Shown here: piece after piece, positions 5,942 to 36,643 of the stretch | How the letters are laid out: each line of letters opens with the position of its first letter | How positions within the stretch are numbered: position 1 is the stretch's first letter | Virus genome (UHGV): UHGV-0090445 | Strand: one strand, 5' to 3' | Length of the DNA stretch: 40,035 nt | Source of the DNA: a virus | Translations under genes and position numbers: made by a program | The notes under the pieces: model-generated | What the model saw: the letters and a program-made list of their open reading frames with translations, nothing else | What the model was told of the DNA's origin: nothing | Databases searched by the model: none

Positions 5942-5991
5942 CAAAACATTATCATCCGGTGTTCTGCTCAAAACTAAGGAGTGGCTACTCA

Positions 5992-6630
5992 ATGAAAAAA
6001 ATAGATATATATAGCGATACATCAGCCTATGTCATAGGCTCATTGGGTTTTTTAATTTTTTTTGTTTGGCAGTACCAGTCACTATCTCCAGGATGGCGAT
6101 TTTTTGGGATGTCTTTGATATCACTTGGTGCAGGAATAGCAACGCAGGTGTTGATGTATCTCTTTAATGGATGGCTCTCAAAAAGAGTTGAGAAAAAAAG
6201 AGCTACTTCAATATGTAGAAGCCTAGCTATTCCAGAAGACTCTACAGATCAGGATGATATTGCAAAATGTTGGCGGTATATGATTGCAAGATACTCAAAT
6301 GAGTTACTGGCAAACAGACTGTCCGACTTAATCGGGGTCGTAGTTACCTCTGTTGGAACAATCATCAGTATAGGGATATCAATTTGGTATGTCGGGATGA
6401 TTGTCTATTTTGTTTGGAATAGAGACTTCAATGAACCTTCCCTTCTTTTTATACCTTTATTTTTCAGGGTATTAGCATTCATATGTGAGTTATTGCTCTC
6501 TTTTTTCTGCAATGTTTTGTTCAACAGATACCCAGGTGAAGCAAGAAAGTTTAATAAAAACTATGATGAGTTAAGGAGAACAGATCCTTTTCTATCAAGT
6601 AAAGAGTTCCGCGATTCCATTCGCAATTAA
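5992..6630 (+). CDS. AT-rich predicted 4-TM inner-membrane protein at the SieA position (candidate superinfection exclusion protein)
   Basis: Start ATG 5992 with SD AAGGAG (5977..5982); four hydrophobic segments; AT-rich by eye; sits between mnt and the gp16 homolog as sieA does in P22. Homology to SieA not verifiable here. Confidence 0.65.
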   Translation: MKKIDIYSDTSAYVIGSLGFLIFFVWQYQSLSPGWRFFGMSLISLGAGIATQVLMYLFNGWLSKRVEKKRATSICRSLAIPEDSTDQDDIAKCWRYMIARYSNELLANRLSDLIGVVVTSVGTIISIGISIWYVGMIVYFVWNRDFNEPSLLFIPLFFRVLAFICELLLSFFCNVLFNRYPGEARKFNKNYDELRRTDPFLSSKEFRDSIRN

Positions 6631-6651
6631 CAACATCCATGACATCAACCC

Positions 6652-8517
6652 TTAGCGATCAGTTGCATCATTGGCAAGTATTGGTCTGATGGCATTTGCG
6701 GCGTTATTCAGCGCTCTTTCATAAGCTGGCGTTCCAGCTTTAGTGTTTGCCAGACGTAAGAGCGCATTCCTAGCCATAGGGCTTTCATAAACCCTCGACA
6801 TAAGGCCAATCCCTGTTTCCCCAGCCAATAGCGCGCCTCCGGTTTTTAGGTTACCAATAACCCTTACCAAAGGCGCGAGTGTCATGCCAGTCTTCGTCAC
6901 AACATTAGCCTCAGATGCTCTTTTGGTAGCATCGAGAATAGATAACATCCCCTCTATCTCTTTTCCGTTCTTCCCACCAAATACAGTTTTAAACACCTGA
7001 CCATTTGCTTGTTTTTGCAGCTTGCCAAGCTCGGTCATCATTTTCTGAGGGCTGTCACCTACCTTGTCAGCTATTTTGCTGATATATGCCGCCCTTAGCA
7101 TGTCTTTACCTTTTTGATCGAGTTTCCCGTACAATCGAGCTATATCTGACCCATATTGTCCATACACAATGGTATTTACAGCCTCGGGAGTTAAATCTCC
7201 TTTGTTTAGAACGTTTTTAAGGCGCGTTTGAGTTGCATGTGTTGCCATTTTTGCATAATCAGCTTTTCCCGCCCTCCATGCTGAAGCATCTTTTGGGCTA
7301 AGTCCTTTCGCTATAGATTTACTAAGGCTATTGGTTAGCGAGTTGTAGACCCTGTCGACCATTGTTTGCGACATTGATGGCAGAACTGTACGATCGCCTT
7401 TTACGTCAATGCGGAACTGAGTTCTCAGCTTATCAAGTAACTCAAAGGCATCATCTCCATTTGTTATCTCCTGAATGGCATTCTTATAATCATTAAGCGC
7501 AGAAATGGTCTGGGTGTCAGAAACACCTTTAAGTTTCCCAAGTTCGTTTACTGCTCCGTCGATAGCTCTTATGGCGCCACTTGTATCAACTGGCTTTCCA
7601 ACCATTCTTCCTGACAGGTTGTTTAGTTTTGACTTGGCTAACGATTTTTCCCTTGCAACGCCTGACTTTAGACTATCAACGACTACAGATGGATCGTAGT
7701 CGCCGTATTTTTCGGTGAAGCGATTAACAAGCTTGGTTCTAGCATCCTGCTGTGCGGCTCTCATTGGTCCAGTCCCAGCTATGACTCCTTCTGAGTAACC
7801 CTGCAGTTGATTGCCAAGTTTTGTTTTTGGAGGAACTACATCCGATGTCATAACTGGTACATCTGCCGCAGCGGCACGCTTGAGCAATTGCTGATCTGCT
7901 GGTGATATTTCGCCACGAACAGCAGTAATTCCACGCCCTATTCCCTTTGCTGCTGCGGAAAGAACCCCCTGAGCGGCAAGGTTAACTCCGGCATTTTTAG
8001 CTGCATTTTGTGCGAAATCGCCTTTCTGATTTGCGGCTTCTGCCAGTGATCCAATAGCCATGCTTCCTGCCGTTCCAACTCCTGGAACTAAATACCCGCC
8101 AATTGTTTCTCCAGCTTGAGCGTAGGGGTCTGTCGGTCGATCGACTGGACGATAGACATCATCCAATACTTTTGGCCCACCAAGCCCCTGGCTGATTGCA
8201 TTAATCAGACTTGCGCCACCCTGCAATACGTCAAATGGTATGTTTACCAGACCACGACCAGCCTGCTCTGCAATTTGCCCTGCACTTTGACCACCAGTGA
8301 GCCAATCGCCAGCTTGTTGCATCAATGATGGTTCTTCTTTCTGCTGCTGAGTCGGAGGGTATGCTGCATAAAACTGATCTCTTGCTTCAGCCCATTTGTC
8401 ACCAGCCTTAGGAGCAACAACCTCATCAAAATATTGCGCTTGAGCCTGTGCTTTCTGTTCTTCAGTTAACGCCTGATACTGTGGAGAGGCGATAACATCT
8501 TTCCATGCTTTAGCCAT
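6652..8517 (-). CDS. Ejection (DNA-transfer) protein, P22 gp16-like
   Basis: 621 aa (P22 gp16 about 609 aa); gene order gp7-gp20-gp16 ahead of immI/tailspike; Ala/Gly-rich. Confidence 0.8.
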   Translation of the reverse strand: MAKAWKDVIASPQYQALTEEQKAQAQAQYFDEVVAPKAGDKWAEARDQFYAAYPPTQQQKEEPSLMQQAGDWLTGGQSAGQIAEQAGRGLVNIPFDVLQGGASLINAISQGLGGPKVLDDVYRPVDRPTDPYAQAGETIGGYLVPGVGTAGSMAIGSLAEAANQKGDFAQNAAKNAGVNLAAQGVLSAAAKGIGRGITAVRGEISPADQQLLKRAAAADVPVMTSDVVPPKTKLGNQLQGYSEGVIAGTGPMRAAQQDARTKLVNRFTEKYGDYDPSVVVDSLKSGVAREKSLAKSKLNNLSGRMVGKPVDTSGAIRAIDGAVNELGKLKGVSDTQTISALNDYKNAIQEITNGDDAFELLDKLRTQFRIDVKGDRTVLPSMSQTMVDRVYNSLTNSLSKSIAKGLSPKDASAWRAGKADYAKMATHATQTRLKNVLNKGDLTPEAVNTIVYGQYGSDIARLYGKLDQKGKDMLRAAYISKIADKVGDSPQKMMTELGKLQKQANGQVFKTVFGGKNGKEIEGMLSILDATKRASEANVVTKTGMTLAPLVRVIGNLKTGGALLAGETGIGLMSRVYESPMARNALLRLANTKAGTPAYERALNNAANAIRPILANDATDR

Positions 8518-25105: not shown

Positions 25106-25630
25106 TTATCCTCTCCCATGATTATGGTGATAGCCCAATCGTGATTCCGCCAATTTTCTGGCATTAACGGCTAGAGATATGTCATCGTATAATCCAAGAA
25201 ATATCTTTTTATTATCACTGTTTATATATGCACCCCACTTTTTATTCTTCTTATAGTAGGCAACACCAATTACTCCAGAGCGATTATTAATAGGCTTTTT
25301 TCTGTTCCTTGAGTTCTGTTTATCATCTACAACGCGCAAATTGCATATTCTGTTATCGCTTTTAATTCCATTTATGTGGTCAATTTCCCCATCAGGTTCA
25401 CTTCCATAAAAGGATATCCATGCGATTCTATGAGCTCGACAAACTTTTTTATTTACAGATATACGAACGTATCCTTTTTCATCTATAGAACCAGCAATCT
25501 TACCGGCATATGTTGAATTCCAGCACTCTCTTACACTTTCTCTTCTCTTGTATATAAACAAACCTGTTTCGCTATTATATTCATACAATTCATTGATTTC
25601 TTTTTGTGTTGGATATCTTTTACCGTTCAT
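25106..25630 (-). CDS. HNH homing endonuclease (HNH plus AP2-like region), AT-rich insertion
   Basis: 174 aa; HRIAWISFYGSEPDGEIDHINGIKSDNRICNLRVV (HNH motif), followed by GVIGVAYYKKNKKWGAYI (AP2-like); AT-rich by eye; wedged between ybcO-like and rusA. Confidence 0.8.
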   Translation of the reverse strand: MNGKRYPTQKEINELYEYNSETGLFIYKRRESVRECWNSTYAGKIAGSIDEKGYVRISVNKKVCRAHRIAWISFYGSEPDGEIDHINGIKSDNRICNLRVVDDKQNSRNRKKPINNRSGVIGVAYYKKNKKWGAYINSDNKKIFLGLYDDISLAVNARKLAESRLGYHHNHGRG

Positions 25631-31316: not shown

Positions 31317-31378
31317 ACAAAAAATACATCTTGTGCATGGATGGTTTTAGTACAGAGCGTAATAATAAGGGTATGAAA

Positions 31379-32032
31379 ATGAAATGGTATGAACTGGCTA
31401 GATCCAGAATGAAAGAGCTCGGCATAACTCAAGAGAAGTTAGCTGAAGAGCTTGGTATGACGCAGGGTGGAATTGGTCACTGGTTGCGCGGATCTCGTCA
31501 TCCATCTCTTGACGAGATTGGTGTGGTGTTTAAATACCTTGGTATTGATAATGTCTCATTCAACCACGACGGTACATTTTCACCTGTTGGCGAATACTCA
31601 TCTGCCCCCGTTAAAAAACAATATGAGTACCCTGTTTTTTCTCATGTTCAGGCCGGGATGTTCTCGCCTGAGCTTAGAACCTTTACCAAAGGTGATGCGG
31701 AGAGATGGGTCAGCACAACCAAAAAAGCCAGTGATTGTGCGTTTTGGCTTGAAGTTGAAGGTAATTCCATGACCGCGCCAACAGGATCCAAGCCAAGCTT
31801 TCCTGACGGGATGTTAATTCTCGTTGACCCTGAGCAGGCTGTTGAGCCAGGTGATTTCTGCATAGCCAGACTTGGTGGTGACGAGTTTACCTTCAAGAAA
31901 CTGATCAGGGATAGCGGTCAGGTGTTCCTACAGCCACTAAACCCGCAATATCCAATGATTCCATGCAATGATAGCTGTTCCGTAGTAGGGAAAGTTATCG
32001 CCAGCCAGTGGCCTGAAGAGACATTTAGTTAA
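31379..32032 (+). CDS. cI: CI/C2-type prophage repressor (HTH plus LexA-like S24 autocleavage domain)
   Basis: ORF 31331..32032, probable start ATG 31379 ([35 protein letters not shown]...); C-terminal S24-like region with GNSMTAPTG and catalytic-type Lys. Confidence 0.85.
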
Positions 32033-32226: not shown

Positions 32227-32256
32227 GCTCTTAAAAATTAAGCCCTGAAGAAGGGC
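32227..32256 (+). promoter_or_regulatory. nutL (boxA plus boxB), lambda-type
   Basis: GCTCTTAAAAATTAA followed by GCCCTGAAGAAGGGC (32242..32256) then AGCATTCAAAGCAG, matching remembered lambda nutL. Confidence 0.85.
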
Positions 32257-32442
32257 AGCATTCAAAGCAGAAGTCTTTGGGATTGGATGAATGCGCAGGC
32301 TGATGCGCACACGAATGTAACTTGCTGGTCAAGTCTCCCCACAGCGACGGGGGTGCAACTGATTCATTTCGTGGCATGTCTAGCTAGCCGGGGTTCAGCG
32401 CCGGCCATCCAATCACCAAAGCTAACTGACTGGAGAATCCAG

Positions 32443-32777: not shown

Positions 32778-33029
32778 ATGGAGTTTCATGAAAGTGCGAT
32801 TTGTGATTTTCGCGCTAACGCAAATTCAGTAAAACCACAGCCAATTGCAGTTCTTTTTAAAACAATGGGTGCGTGGGCTGTTTTATGCTTCGCCGCTGAC
32901 GACACTGACGCAAGAATGGCAATAGGCCAAGAGATGGAGATGGACCCGACAAACGATGAATTCATAATTTATGGCGCTCCATCTAATTACTTACTTGATA
33001 CCTGCAACATTTACAACAAGGCTGCCTGA
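32778..33029 (+). CDS. Hypothetical early protein (83 aa)
   Basis: ORF from track immediately after N; no family recognised. Confidence 0.45.
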   Translation: MEFHESAICDFRANANSVKPQPIAVLFKTMGAWAVLCFAADDTDARMAIGQEMEMDPTNDEFIIYGAPSNYLLDTCNIYNKAA

Positions 33030-33069
33030 TGGTGGCCTTTATTTTTGGCATAAACAATATGGGGTAAAA

Positions 33070-33396
33070 ATGAAAGTTTTAATGGTTTATGAAAATGTTC
33101 CAGAGTCGACTGAAATCTATATTTTTGATGCCAATGAAGATGAAGTTAACGATTTGAAATTGTCTCACGGCAATTACACAAATGCTAATTGTGATGAAAG
33201 TATCGAAAAAGCACTATCACGTGTTCTTGTCAGAATTAGTGATCCAGAACATTGTGATGATGATTGGCTTTCTTATTGTGGAGCGGTAAAAACTGATGCA
33301 GGAAAATGGAGTAAAAGTAAAGTTGATAACTCAACTCCAATTATTATGAAAGATAGCGATATTGAAATGGTAATAATAACCGGAATGATTATGTAG
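33070..33396 (+). CDS. Acidic AT-rich hypothetical early protein (108 aa)
   Basis: Internal start ATG 33070 with SD GGGG; about 21 Asp/Glu vs 10 Lys/Arg by hand count; strongly AT-rich codons. Confidence 0.5.
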   Translation: MKVLMVYENVPESTEIYIFDANEDEVNDLKLSHGNYTNANCDESIEKALSRVLVRISDPEHCDDDWLSYCGAVKTDAGKWSKSKVDNSTPIIMKDSDIEMVIITGMIM

Positions 33397-33502
33397 GCTG
33401 CGAATAAGCACTGTGTATTCATTCCAACGAGTGAATACACGGAGCAATGTCGCTCGTAACTAAACAGGAGACGACTTGTTCTGATTATTGGAAATCTTCT
33501 TT

Positions 33503-33529
33503 GCCCTCCAATGTGAGGGCGATTTTTTA
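33503..33529 (+). terminator. Intrinsic terminator inside the pL operon
   Basis: GCCCTC-CAATGT-GAGGGC followed by GATTTTTTAT. Confidence 0.4.
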
Positions 33530-33548
33530 TCTGTGAGGATATGAACAG

Positions 33549-33917
33549 ATGTCAAACATCAAAAAATACATCATTGATTACGACTGGAAAGCATCAATAG
33601 AAATTGAAATCGACCATGACGTAATGACAGAGGAAAAACTTCACCAGATTAATAATTTCTGGTCAGACTCTGAATACCGACTCAATAAACACGGCGCTGT
33701 ATTAAATGCTGTATTAATCATGCTGGCGCAACATGCTCTGCTTATAGCAATTTCGAAAGACTTAAATGCATATGGTGTTGTTTGTGAGTTCGACTGGGAT
33801 GATGGAAATGGTCAGGAAGGATGGCCTCCAATGGATGGTAGTGAAGGAATAAGAATTACCGATATCGATACATCAGGAATATTTGATTCAGATGATATGA
33901 CTATCAAAGCCGCCTGA
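33549..33917 (+). CDS. Acidic hypothetical early protein (122 aa)
   Basis: ORF from track; about 23 Asp/Glu vs 9 Lys/Arg by hand count, acidic C-terminal region EFDWDDGNGQEGWPPMDGSEG...FDSDDM. Confidence 0.55.
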   Translation: MSNIKKYIIDYDWKASIEIEIDHDVMTEEKLHQINNFWSDSEYRLNKHGAVLNAVLIMLAQHALLIAISKDLNAYGVVCEFDWDDGNGQEGWPPMDGSEGIRITDIDTSGIFDSDDMTIKAA

Positions 33918-33951: not shown

Positions 33952-34920
33952 ATGAGTGAAGTAACAGATTTAGTTGTTATTGAAAAAGCAAATGCAATGA
34001 CTGTATTTCAGTCTGCCGACCAGATTGAAGAAATCCTTCAAAGGGTTGAACGTGAAGTTATGTCCTTTGTGCCTGATATCACAACGGCAAAGGGCAGAAA
34101 GGAGATCGCTTCTCTGGCGTATAAAGTTGCGCAGACGAAAACATATCTCGATGGTCTTGGCAAAGACCTTGTTGCTGAACTGAAGGAAATTCCAAAGCTA
34201 ATTGATGCCAACCGCAAGACAGTGCGTGATCGCCTTGATGAGCTGAAAGCCAAGGCGCGCCAGCCTCTTACTGATTATGAGGAGGAACAGGCACGGATTA
34301 AAGCCGAAGAAGAAGCTAAGGCAGCAGCTGAAGCTCTCGCAAAGCAAATTGAGTCTGACCATGAAATAGCGATTTTGATGGATCGCGAATTTGACCGCCA
34401 AAGAGAAGAGGCAAGACTCAAAGCGGAGCAGGAAAAGCGAGAGCATGAAGAACGCTTAAAAAGAGAAGCTGAAGAGAAAGCCAGAGCAGAAGCCGAAGCA
34501 AAGGCAAAAGCCGAAATTGAAGCAGCAGCAAGGAGAGAAGCAGAAGCTAAGGCCGCAGCGGAACGTGCAGAGCGTGAACGCATTGAAGCCGAGCAACGAG
34601 CACAGCGCGAAGCAAAAGAGGCAGCAGAACGAGCTGAAAGAGAAAAGCAGGCGGCAATTGAAGCAGAACGCCGAAAAGCACAGGAGGAGGCTGAACGAAT
34701 CCGGCGCGAAGCTGAAGCAAAAGAGCAAGCCAGAATAGCAGAAGAAAAAAGAATCAAGGACGAAGAAGAGCGTAGAGCAAAGGATAAAGCTCACCGGAAA
34801 GAAGTAAATAACAAAATACTTGCTGACCTTATCAAGGTTGGCGCATCAGAAGATGTTGCTAAAAATATCATAACAGCCATCGTAAAAGGCGAAGTATTCG
34901 CAACAAAAATAACCTACTAA
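33952..34920 (+). CDS. DUF1351-like coiled-coil protein with Ala/Glu/Lys/Arg-rich low-complexity centre
   Basis: 322 aa; conserved-looking N- and C-terminal regions flanking about 130 aa of AEAKAKAE/ERAERE repeats; lies in the recombination module upstream of the annealing protein. Family name from memory. Confidence 0.6.
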   Translation: MSEVTDLVVIEKANAMTVFQSADQIEEILQRVEREVMSFVPDITTAKGRKEIASLAYKVAQTKTYLDGLGKDLVAELKEIPKLIDANRKTVRDRLDELKAKARQPLTDYEEEQARIKAEEEAKAAAEALAKQIESDHEIAILMDREFDRQREEARLKAEQEKREHEERLKREAEEKARAEAEAKAKAEIEAAARREAEAKAAAERAERERIEAEQRAQREAKEAAERAEREKQAAIEAERRKAQEEAERIRREAEAKEQARIAEEKRIKDEEERRAKDKAHRKEVNNKILADLIKVGASEDVAKNIITAIVKGEVFATKITY

Positions 34921-34944: not shown

Positions 34945-35076
34945 ATGATTTACGCAATCGCGGGAGGCGCTCGCATGGGTGCCTTCCAATTAAATGAATC
35001 TTTACTTGAACGAATCATCCGTAAATTACGTGACGGATGGAAAAGAGTTGAGGTCTTATTATGCGCAATGAAATAG
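34945..35076 (+). CDS. cIII: CIII-like protease inhibitor (small; absent from the ORF track)
   Basis: 43 aa MIYAIAGGARMGAFQLNESLLERIIRKLRDGWKRVEV...; ESLLERI.RKLRDGWKR matches remembered lambda CIII core; SD AAGGA upstream. Confidence 0.6.
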   Translation: MIYAIAGGARMGAFQLNESLLERIIRKLRDGWKRVEVLLCAMK

Positions 35077-35213
35077 CCATTAATCACCAGATGCTTCGTG
35101 CTGCACAGAACAAAGCAGTAATAGCCAGATTTATTGGTGATTCAAAAATGTGGCTTGAAGCAAATAAAGCGATGAAATCAGCTATCAACCTTCCGTGGTA
35201 TCGCAGGAAATGA
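35061..35213 (+). CDS. kil: Kil-like small protein (absent from the ORF track)
   Basis: 50 aa; VIARFIGDSKMWLEANKAMKSAI resembles remembered lambda Kil (TIATFIGDEKMFREA); overlaps cIII end as in lambda. Confidence 0.45.
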   Translation: MRNEIAINHQMLRAAQNKAVIARFIGDSKMWLEANKAMKSAINLPWYRRK

Positions 35214-35467: not shown

Positions 35468-36175
35468 ATGGATTTGAATAAATTCGATGAGCCATTCAGC
35501 CACGAAGATATCGAATGGCGAATACAGCAAAGCGGTAAAACACGCGATGGCAAGGTGTGGGCTATGGTGCTGGCTTATGTCACGAACCGGGCAATCATGA
35601 AACGCCTGGACGATGTTTGCGGCAAAGCAGGATGGCGCAATGAATACCGCGATATTCCCAACAACGGCGGAGTTGAATGCGGCATATCAATCAAGATTGA
35701 TTCCGAATGGGTAACCAAATGGGATGCTGCTGAAAACACGCAGGTAGAAGCCGTCAAAGGTGGTCGTTCCGGTGCAATGAAGCGCGCTGCCGTTCAGTGG
35801 GGAATCGGTCGGTATCTGTATAACCTTGAGGAAGGTTTCGCACAAACATCTCTCGATAAAAAGCATGGGTGGCACAGGGCAAAACTGAAGGATGGAACAG
35901 GATTTTACTGGCTCCCTCCATCGCTTCCGGGATGGGCAATCCCAGCATCAGATAACAAACCATCACCAGAAAATATCAACCAGAAATCTCCATCGGTTGA
36001 CTGCGAACAAATCCTGAAAGACTTCAGCGATTATGCGTCAACAGAAACTGACAAGAAAAAACTCATCGAGCGTTATCAGCATGACTGGCAATTAATGGCT
36101 GGCAATGAGGATGCGCAGGCTAAATGCGTTCAGGTAATGAACATCAGAGTTAACGAACTAAAACAGGCGGCATAA
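35468..36175 (+). CDS. Single-strand annealing protein: Rad52/Sak-like N-terminal domain fused to P22 Erf-like C-terminal tail
   Basis: 235 aa; N-terminal region (GKVWAMVLAYVTNRAIMKRLDDVCG...AMKRAAVQWGIGRYLYNL) Rad52/Sak-like; C-terminal ...QILKDFSDYASTETDKKKLIERYQHDWQLMAGNEDAQAKCVQVMNIRVNELKQAA matches remembered P22 Erf C-terminus. Confidence 0.8.
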   Translation: MDLNKFDEPFSHEDIEWRIQQSGKTRDGKVWAMVLAYVTNRAIMKRLDDVCGKAGWRNEYRDIPNNGGVECGISIKIDSEWVTKWDAAENTQVEAVKGGRSGAMKRAAVQWGIGRYLYNLEEGFAQTSLDKKHGWHRAKLKDGTGFYWLPPSLPGWAIPASDNKPSPENINQKSPSVDCEQILKDFSDYASTETDKKKLIERYQHDWQLMAGNEDAQAKCVQVMNIRVNELKQAA

Positions 36176-36643
36176 ATGTCTCACTTGGACGGAATTATTA
36201 AAAGATTCGAGTCCAGCTACAAAGTTAATGAAACAACAGGTTGCTGGGAGTCTACCTATTCAAAAAACAAAGGAGGATACACAAAATTTGTAGCCTTTGG
36301 CGTAACAATGCTTTCTCATCGGGTTGCTTTTGAGCTTTATCACTCCCCCATTCCATCTGGGAAGATGGTTTGCCACAAATGCGATAACCCATGCTGCGTT
36401 AATCCTGAACATCTCTTTTTAGGTAGCGCGCAAGAAAACATGGACGACAAGATAGCAAAAGGAAGGCATCGTGGAGCCAAGAAAGGTCATGCTCATCATG
36501 GTGCAAAATTAACAGAGTGGCAGGTTATAGAAATTAGGAAAAGACTCTCTGAAAAAGAGAGTCAGTACAAGATAGCAAAAGACATGGGTGTATCTCAATC
36601 AATTATAAGCAACATAAAAACTGGCAAGAGGTGGAGAAAATGA
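36176..36643 (+). CDS. HNH homing endonuclease with C-terminal HTH-like region, insertion between annealing protein and SSB
   Basis: 155 aa; Cys/His-rich HNH-like core ([26 protein letters not shown]); C-terminal [22 protein letters not shown]; stop overlaps ssb start (ATGA). Confidence 0.8.

Follow-up and report, generated by a model that had tools for sequence, protein, structure and literature searches.

The sequence analysed here, virus genome UHGV-0090445, is a single stretch of 40,035 nucleotides (nt), which we refer to as the window. All of it belongs to a P22-like phage, with an integrase, a tailspike carrying the P22 head-binding domain and Arc/antirepressor genes. We focus on positions 32778-33917, which contain two open reading frames (ORFs) for small acidic proteins of 108 and 122 amino acids (aa), called ORF108 and ORF122 below. 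An earlier note on this DNA had singled out both as candidate anti-defence proteins of the DNA-mimic type. The segment corresponds to the "ral accessory region", a variable part of the pL (early leftward) operon, which is under N antitermination, in a P22-like lambdoid phage. It contains, in order, ORF83 in the place of ral, a conserved hairpin, a cassette with ORF108, a homologue of the PreS/LPR1 small RNA (sRNA) running to terminator tL2a, and ORF122, which we identify below as lambda Ea10 (Table 1).

The setting is largely as the earlier note had described it. Both reading frames lie on the plus strand just after a gene for a lambda-type N protein, itself preceded by a nutL boxB that we take to be a match to that of lambda. 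They occupy the slot where lambda has ral, a mosaic accessory region with known counter-defence genes; a comparison of gene neighbourhoods showed the whole N-to-cIII interval to be mosaic across lambdoid and P22-like phages. The limits of the two ORFs and their acid/base counts were reproduced exactly, with 21 aspartate or glutamate vs. 10 lysine or arginine residues in ORF108 (isoelectric point, pI, 4.36) and 23 vs. 9 in ORF122 (pI 4.31). ORF122 ranks first for acidity per residue among 55 non-overlapping ORFs (net -0.115), and ORF108, counted from its true start, is the second most acidic protein of the window (net -0.102).

Table 1. Features of the accessory region and its surroundings (coordinates are those of the window)
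Feature	Position	Strand	Basis and details
cI-like repressor ORF	31331-32032		
nutL boxB GCCCTGAAGAAGGGC, with boxA-like GCTCTTAAAAA 5' of it	32243-32257	+	direct sequence reading; the hairpin scan found boxB on the other strand
Antiterminator N, lambda type, 108 aa	32443-32769	+	Pfam PF11438 (N36), E 1.6e-26; phrog_271
ORF83, acidic, 83 aa, pI 4.24, in ral position	32778-33029	+	VT2-Sakai H0090 / mEp234 gp34 family, phrog_2471
Hairpin and T-run over the last ORF83 codons (K-A-A-stop); left junction of the ORF108 cassette	33018-33047	+	-13.9 kcal/mol, z -2.3
AT-rich single-gene cassette with ORF108, insertion relative to lambda and mEp234	33058-33404	+	alignment
ORF108, acidic, 108 aa	33070-33396	+	WP_001735521.1 family, phrog_4658
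12-bp inverted repeat GTGTATTCATTC/GAGTGAATACAC, directly 5' of the sRNA, identical in lambda	33413-33440	+	
LPR1/PreS sRNA homologue (approximate ends), terminating at tL2a	33441-33529	+	fold z -3.8
Terminator tL2a: 8-bp G+C-rich stem, 6-nt loop, T6 run (hairpin 33501-33522)	33501-33529	+	
ORF122 = Ea10 (DUF2528), 122 aa	33549-33917	+	Pfam PF10800, E 4.1e-46
322-aa charged coiled-coil protein, 'TolA-like', between Ea10 and cIII/kil	33952-34920	+	ORF list; phrog_1376

ORF108 had been described as markedly AT-rich, and indeed no 327-nt stretch of the 40 kb is richer in AT. The GC content of ORF108 is 32.7%, the lowest in the window, compared to 47.1% for the window as a whole, and only 0.06% of segments of the same size are equally low (ORF122 has 38.2% GC). 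An upstream ATG would extend the protein to 141 aa. The family alignment speaks against it: every member begins at one shared methionine (MKV...), which makes the 108-aa start the right one. Comparison with an 82%-identical homologue, located after Ral in another lambdoid prophage, gave a ratio of nonsynonymous to synonymous substitution rates (dN/dS) of 0.075. ORF108 is evidently a real protein-coding gene under purifying selection.

To define the ends of the insertion we aligned the window with lambda, with mEp234, which has ORF83 and lacks ORF108, and with a prophage of E. coli CFSAN061770, which has both ral and ORF108. About 347 nt carrying ORF108 stand in place of about 13 nt, between the hairpin at the end of ral or ORF83 and the inverted repeat that precedes PreS. 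The gene is found in only 16 of 5426 complete E. coli genomes, vs. 1479 for Ea10, and its neighbours vary on both sides: Ral, ORF83 or an Nmad5 gene upstream, and Ea10, a 56-aa ORF or IS3 downstream. By all appearances ORF108 is a rare, horizontally acquired single-gene cassette.

An exhaustive HMMER search recovered only 59 cluster representatives of the ORF108 family, nearly all of 100-112 aa. Homologue searches returned no named or annotated member, every matched record being labelled hypothetical. In another lambdoid prophage, a homologue directly follows an N-like gene. Further relatives occur in Klebsiella phages, in T4-like phages such as RB16 (in the gene cluster containing ndd), on a 161-kb phage contig, and in a virulent phage where the gene adjoins those for ligase, dUTPase and RdgC. 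The family is small and confined to phages, where it is found in the early operons of lambdoid phages as well as in virulent ones, and by family membership its fold would be common to temperate lambdoid and to virulent T4-like and T5-like phages. ORF108 is an uncharacterised member of an already known class, the phage accessory genes. The virulent-phage contig with an ORF108 relative also encodes a Band_7 (SPFH) protein (6503-7351), two genes further downstream, probably by coincidence.

ORF108 might also be read as a prophage 'moron', expressed in the lysogen and benefiting the host, for example through superinfection exclusion or defence, rather than serving the lytic cycle. It has several attributes of one: it is an AT-rich insertion of a single gene, preceded by a hairpin and followed by a terminator, its base composition is deviant and its flanks are conserved, and it lies in the region where lambda carries sieB. 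A moron's own promoter, however, is not apparent. A scan limited to the consensus found no sigma-70-like promoter in the gap of about 30 nt between the upstream hairpin, ending at 33047, and the ATG at 33070. Since no promoter-like site fits there, ORF108 is apparently read as part of the pL operon, the orientation of which it shares. Members of its family are present in virulent phages, where a lysogenic state does not exist, and ORF108 has no PADLOC match. We consider a moron function very improbable.

The second acidic protein turned out to be a familiar one. The profile search that the earlier note had proposed matched ORF122 to DUF2528 (Ea10) over its full length (156.2 bits with a gathering cut-off of 22; positions 1-104 of the 104-position profile). 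By tblastn it is 97.5% identical to Ea10 of phage lambda and 100% identical to an mEpX2 product. The lambda record places ea10 (lambdap45) at 33536-33904, between ral and cIII. The lambda protein has the same length as ORF122 and the same PreS/tL2a sequence upstream, with about 98% identity over 145 nt, and synteny continues downstream, where cIII-like and kil-like ORFs follow after one extra gene. The phage of the window differs from lambda in that extra gene, which encodes the 322-aa coiled-coil protein between Ea10 and cIII, and in having ORF83 and ORF108 where lambda has ral, orf28 and sieB. By homology and gene order ORF122 is lambda Ea10, a long-known gene that the earlier note had missed, and we use this name from here on.

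In lambda, Ea10 is an abundantly produced early protein that was formerly mistaken for Kil (PMC3961180); it is non-essential by CRISPR interference (CRISPRi; PMC10695390) and its role is "not fully understood" (bioRxiv 10.1101/2024.10.31.621285). No link of Ea10 to defence was found in the literature searched. The gene is present at ≥95% nt identity in 27% of the complete E. coli genomes (1479/5426), in up to four copies per genome. More distant DUF2528/Ea10 relatives (identities of 38-45%, and of 34-53% to the window protein) are regular in Mu-like prophages of Salmonella, Oceanobacter and Burkholderia (phiE255), where they sit in the early region between a transposase B-like ATPase gene and Gam/GemA/Mor. 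A block of host replication, as reported by Sergueev et al. 2002, was also considered for Ea10; a literature check placed this effect in the exo-xis region rather than in ea10-ral, and the idea was dropped.

Many database records attach a legacy 'ssb' label to Ea10, according to which it would be a single-stranded DNA (ssDNA)-binding protein assisting recombination or replication. Ea10 does share its operon with recombination genes. Against this, it has a net charge of -14 and only 4 conserved basic columns, and it has no Pfam match to an OB-fold or SSB family. In addition, a canonical-looking SSB ORF is already present in this phage (36631-37146), with an equivalent annotated as ssb in a homologous prophage. 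The current RefSeq name of Ea10 is just 'DUF2528 family protein', and no primary evidence for ssDNA binding was found in the searchable literature. The old label is without support from fold or composition, and we regard this function as hardly credible.

The earlier note had further stated that the second gene is preceded by its own terminator hairpin and that its expression may depend on N antitermination. A hairpin with a T-run does lie 20 nt upstream of ORF122, but its identity as tL2a and as the 3' end of PreS had been missed. Positions 33405-33548 align to the ral-ea10 intergenic region of lambda with 2 mismatches and no gaps (~98% identity). In lambda this region encodes an Hfq-bound sRNA of ~88 nt, LPR1, since renamed PreS, the 3' end of which is tL2a; PreS is produced during the lytic cycle and increases the translation of dnaN (bioRxiv 10.1101/2024.10.31.621285). 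Rfam has no model for PreS/LPR1. The copy in the window resembles that of lambda in its terminator stem-loop, U-tail, structured 5' part and place between the ral slot and ea10. It differs in that ORF108 is inserted just upstream, and the sRNA no longer directly follows the gene in the ral slot.

The inverted repeat immediately 5' of the putative sRNA is perfect, with a 4-nt loop, and positions 33400-33530, which include it, are predicted to form a very stable structure (z -6.3); the repeat might be where processing fixes the 5' end of the sRNA. The hairpin before ORF122 is, on this comparison, tL2a together with the 3' end of a PreS/LPR1 homologue, and more than a terminator. The annotation is corrected to this extent, with the ORF108 cassette having landed just upstream of an sRNA. 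Because the hairpin corresponds to lambda tL2a, and because N and nutL are of the lambda type, expression of ORF122 through the terminator should indeed need N.

The proposal that both proteins mimic DNA fared less well. According to this idea, ORF108 and/or Ea10 would act like Ocr or ArdA, filling the DNA-binding groove of type I restriction-modification (R-M) or BREX enzymes. Like the Ocr/ArdA-type proteins, they are small, acidic (pI 4.3-4.4) and early, and encoded in a counter-defence hot spot, here adjacent to ral or replacing it. Their acidity is a property of both families (mean net charge -10 for ORF108 and -14 for Ea10). The charge density, however, is less than half that of T7 Ocr, which has a net charge of -0.239 per residue (calculated from NC_001604) and 29% aspartate and glutamate vs. 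19% in each of our two proteins, and thus falls short of the extreme charge of a mimic. Only 4 columns of the ORF108 family alignment and 10 of the Ea10 alignment are ≥70% acidic. The invariant positions form motifs rich in G, P, W, N and H: IPES, HGxYxN, GKW and TGF in ORF108, and EIDHD and EGWPxMDGSxGI in Ea10. In neither family do the conserved motifs amount to acidic patches; they are polar or aromatic.

Structure prediction, also proposed in the earlier note, points in the same direction. AlphaFold2 models built with the family alignments reached a pLDDT (predicted local distance difference test) of 97 for ORF108 and 94 for Ea10. In both a β-hairpin is followed by 3-4 helices and a C-terminal strand, giving what is predicted to be a compact α/β domain. 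Neither model had a fold match to any DNA mimic, and searches of PDB and BFVD found no fold matching the ORF108 model outside its own family. Pfam, PHROG and PDB gave no sequence match to a known mimic (Ocr, ArdA, Arn, Gam etc.) for either protein, and BFVD returned only ORF108's own family. Ocr/ArdA-type proteins thus have no fold or sequence similarity to either.

Two further observations bear on mimicry. Neither family was found in the leading regions of conjugative plasmids, the home of ArdA-type mimics: ORF108 had one Burkholderia match, and there were 19 Ea10 'plasmid' records, of which those judged by size (39.9 kb, and lambda-sized at ~48.5 kb) look like phage genomes. Furthermore, Ral itself is basic and not a mimic (bioRxiv 10.1101/2023.04.06.535777, together with our charge calculation). 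DNA mimicry is not supported, and we judge it very unlikely for either protein. The similar order of secondary-structure elements in ORF108 and Ea10 also led us to compare them as possible distant homologues; this was rejected, with an hhalign probability of 0.3% between the family profiles and no Ea10 among the BFVD matches of the ORF108 model.

The best structural neighbours of the Ea10 model, albeit weak ones, are SPFH/Band-7 domains (HflC, HflK, stomatin). A soluble domain of this type might act on HflK/HflC-FtsH and modulate the stability of CII and CIII, and through it the choice between lysis and lysogeny, much as the neighbouring cIII does. If this is true, an abundant early protein of lambda that has lacked a function for decades would gain one. 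Ea10 has no sequence or profile signal to Band_7, however. DUF2528 also occurs in Mu-like prophages in which no CII/CIII family gene was called within the ~10 kb examined, and many phages, such as mEp234, have cIII without Ea10. An SPFH-like action of Ea10 is, in our view, very improbable.

The best explanation of these observations, and one that we think somewhat more probable than its alternatives taken together, is that each of these small proteins acts by binding one particular protein of the host or of a defence system in stoichiometric amounts. We propose that ORF108 and Ea10 would both be delayed-early proteins, the synthesis of which would need N-modified RNA polymerase. For Ea10, this polymerase would have to read through tL2a. 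The proposed N dependence draws on the N36 domain, the nutL boxB and the terminators at 33018-33047 and 33501-33529. As binders of a specific protein, the two would be host-takeover or counter-defence factors and not DNA mimics.

How likely a counter-defence role is depends in part on location. Accessory regions such as the ral region are counter-defence hot spots in the work of Silas et al. (bioRxiv 10.1101/2023.04.06.535777), who screened 200 accessory genes in ECOR. Genes tested from this region include ral (orf87, as a control), orf184 and orf60. Of these, orf184 triggers the gop-beta-cII abortive-infection (Abi) system, whereas orf60, which is ORF83, is not listed among the phenotype-bearing genes; ORF108 and Ea10 are outside the 200-gene set (bioRxiv 10.1101/2023.04.06.535777). 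The genes of the screen share with ORF108 and Ea10 the same genomic slot and the behaviour of mosaic single-gene cassettes. Because this slot is a recognised counter-defence accessory region, location raises the prior for such a role. We looked for a remote relationship between orf184 and Ea10, which have a GW-P-M-DG-EG-like motif in common; with an hhalign probability of 2% and different PHROGs, it was not demonstrable.

Several points weigh against a specific-binder, counter-defence function. Location alone is a weak predictor, since the neighbour that was tested, ORF83 (orf60), is not among the genes with a phenotype. PADLOC and NCBIfam gave no match for either protein, and no known anti-defence family was matched. 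Charge probably matters in some way, because acidity is conserved across both families. Ea10, moreover, is very common and highly conserved, at ≥95% nt identity in more than a quarter of E. coli, and is also found in the early regions of Mu-like prophages; this pattern suits a general role in phage physiology better than a counter-defence gene that evolves fast. Taking both sides together, a true counter-defence role is made plausible for ORF108 by its context, though we lean against it, and for Ea10 it is unlikely. It is likewise possible, rather than to be expected, that at least one of two larger claims holds: that ORF108 founds a new class of counter-defence or host-takeover proteins, or that Ea10 is a soluble SPFH-like domain targeting HflKC-FtsH. 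The region is an ordinary accessory-gene region with one modest anti-defence candidate, ORF108.

The two genes differ in what they offer. Among the lambda early proteins made in abundance, Ea10 is one of the last that still has no function. With the gene in 27% of complete E. coli genomes, Shiga-toxin prophages among its carriers, any function would be widely relevant; on Ea10, this window adds nothing beyond lambda itself. ORF108 is the more useful lead: it is rare, clearly mobile and strongly selected, has a confidently predicted fold without a match outside its own family, and lies beside ral, where counter-defence genes and Abi triggers were found experimentally. It would be a reasonable choice for anti-defence screens, yet accessory genes of this kind are very numerous.

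The gene to the left of the cassette, ORF83, begins at the very position where the finding of the earlier note began, and was not discussed in its text. ORF83 is 100% identical to AFM76313.1 (orf60 of Silas et al.), to mEp234 gp34 and to VT2-Sakai H0090. Neither ORF83 nor ORF108 has a Pfam match to the Ral family (PF11058) at E values up to 1, and the likeness of ORF83 to Ral is limited to the C-terminal NKAA and the hairpin. This hairpin is also kept after ral in lambda (34065-34090) and is a rho-independent terminator according to the mEp234 annotation. The shared K-A-A-stop/hairpin sequence looks like a recombination junction at which alternative genes are swapped. The codons AAG GCT GCC TGA of Ral and ORF83 make up the 5' arm and loop of the conserved hairpin with its T-run, and a C-terminal ...K-A-A-stop is common to Ral, ORF83, Ea10 and orf184 of Silas et al.

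A few further features were noted elsewhere in the window. The 322-aa protein downstream of Ea10 is ~46% charged (78 aspartate or glutamate and 70 lysine or arginine residues), with long A/E/K/R repeats and no Pfam family; some phage annotations call it 'TolA' or 'cell envelope biogenesis protein'. Beyond it, a cIII-like ORF (43 aa, 34945-35076) overlaps a kil-like ORF (50 aa, 35061-35213) by 16 nt, as in many P22-like phages, both being assigned solely by eye and by synteny with annotated relatives. An HNH-type ORF (36176-36643), assigned by sequence reading only, lies between a Rad52-family recombinase (35468-36175) and the SSB gene, the start of which it overlaps. A second HNH-type endonuclease (Pfam HNH_3, E 1e-16) is encoded by an AT-rich ORF at 25106-25630, in the nin region beside RusA. 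Other AT-rich troughs (33-35% GC) at 5959-6630 and 1187-1688 may represent further horizontally acquired modules; one of them is a 223-aa ORF without a Pfam match by an Arc-like immI gene, and the other is the distal part of the tailspike gene.

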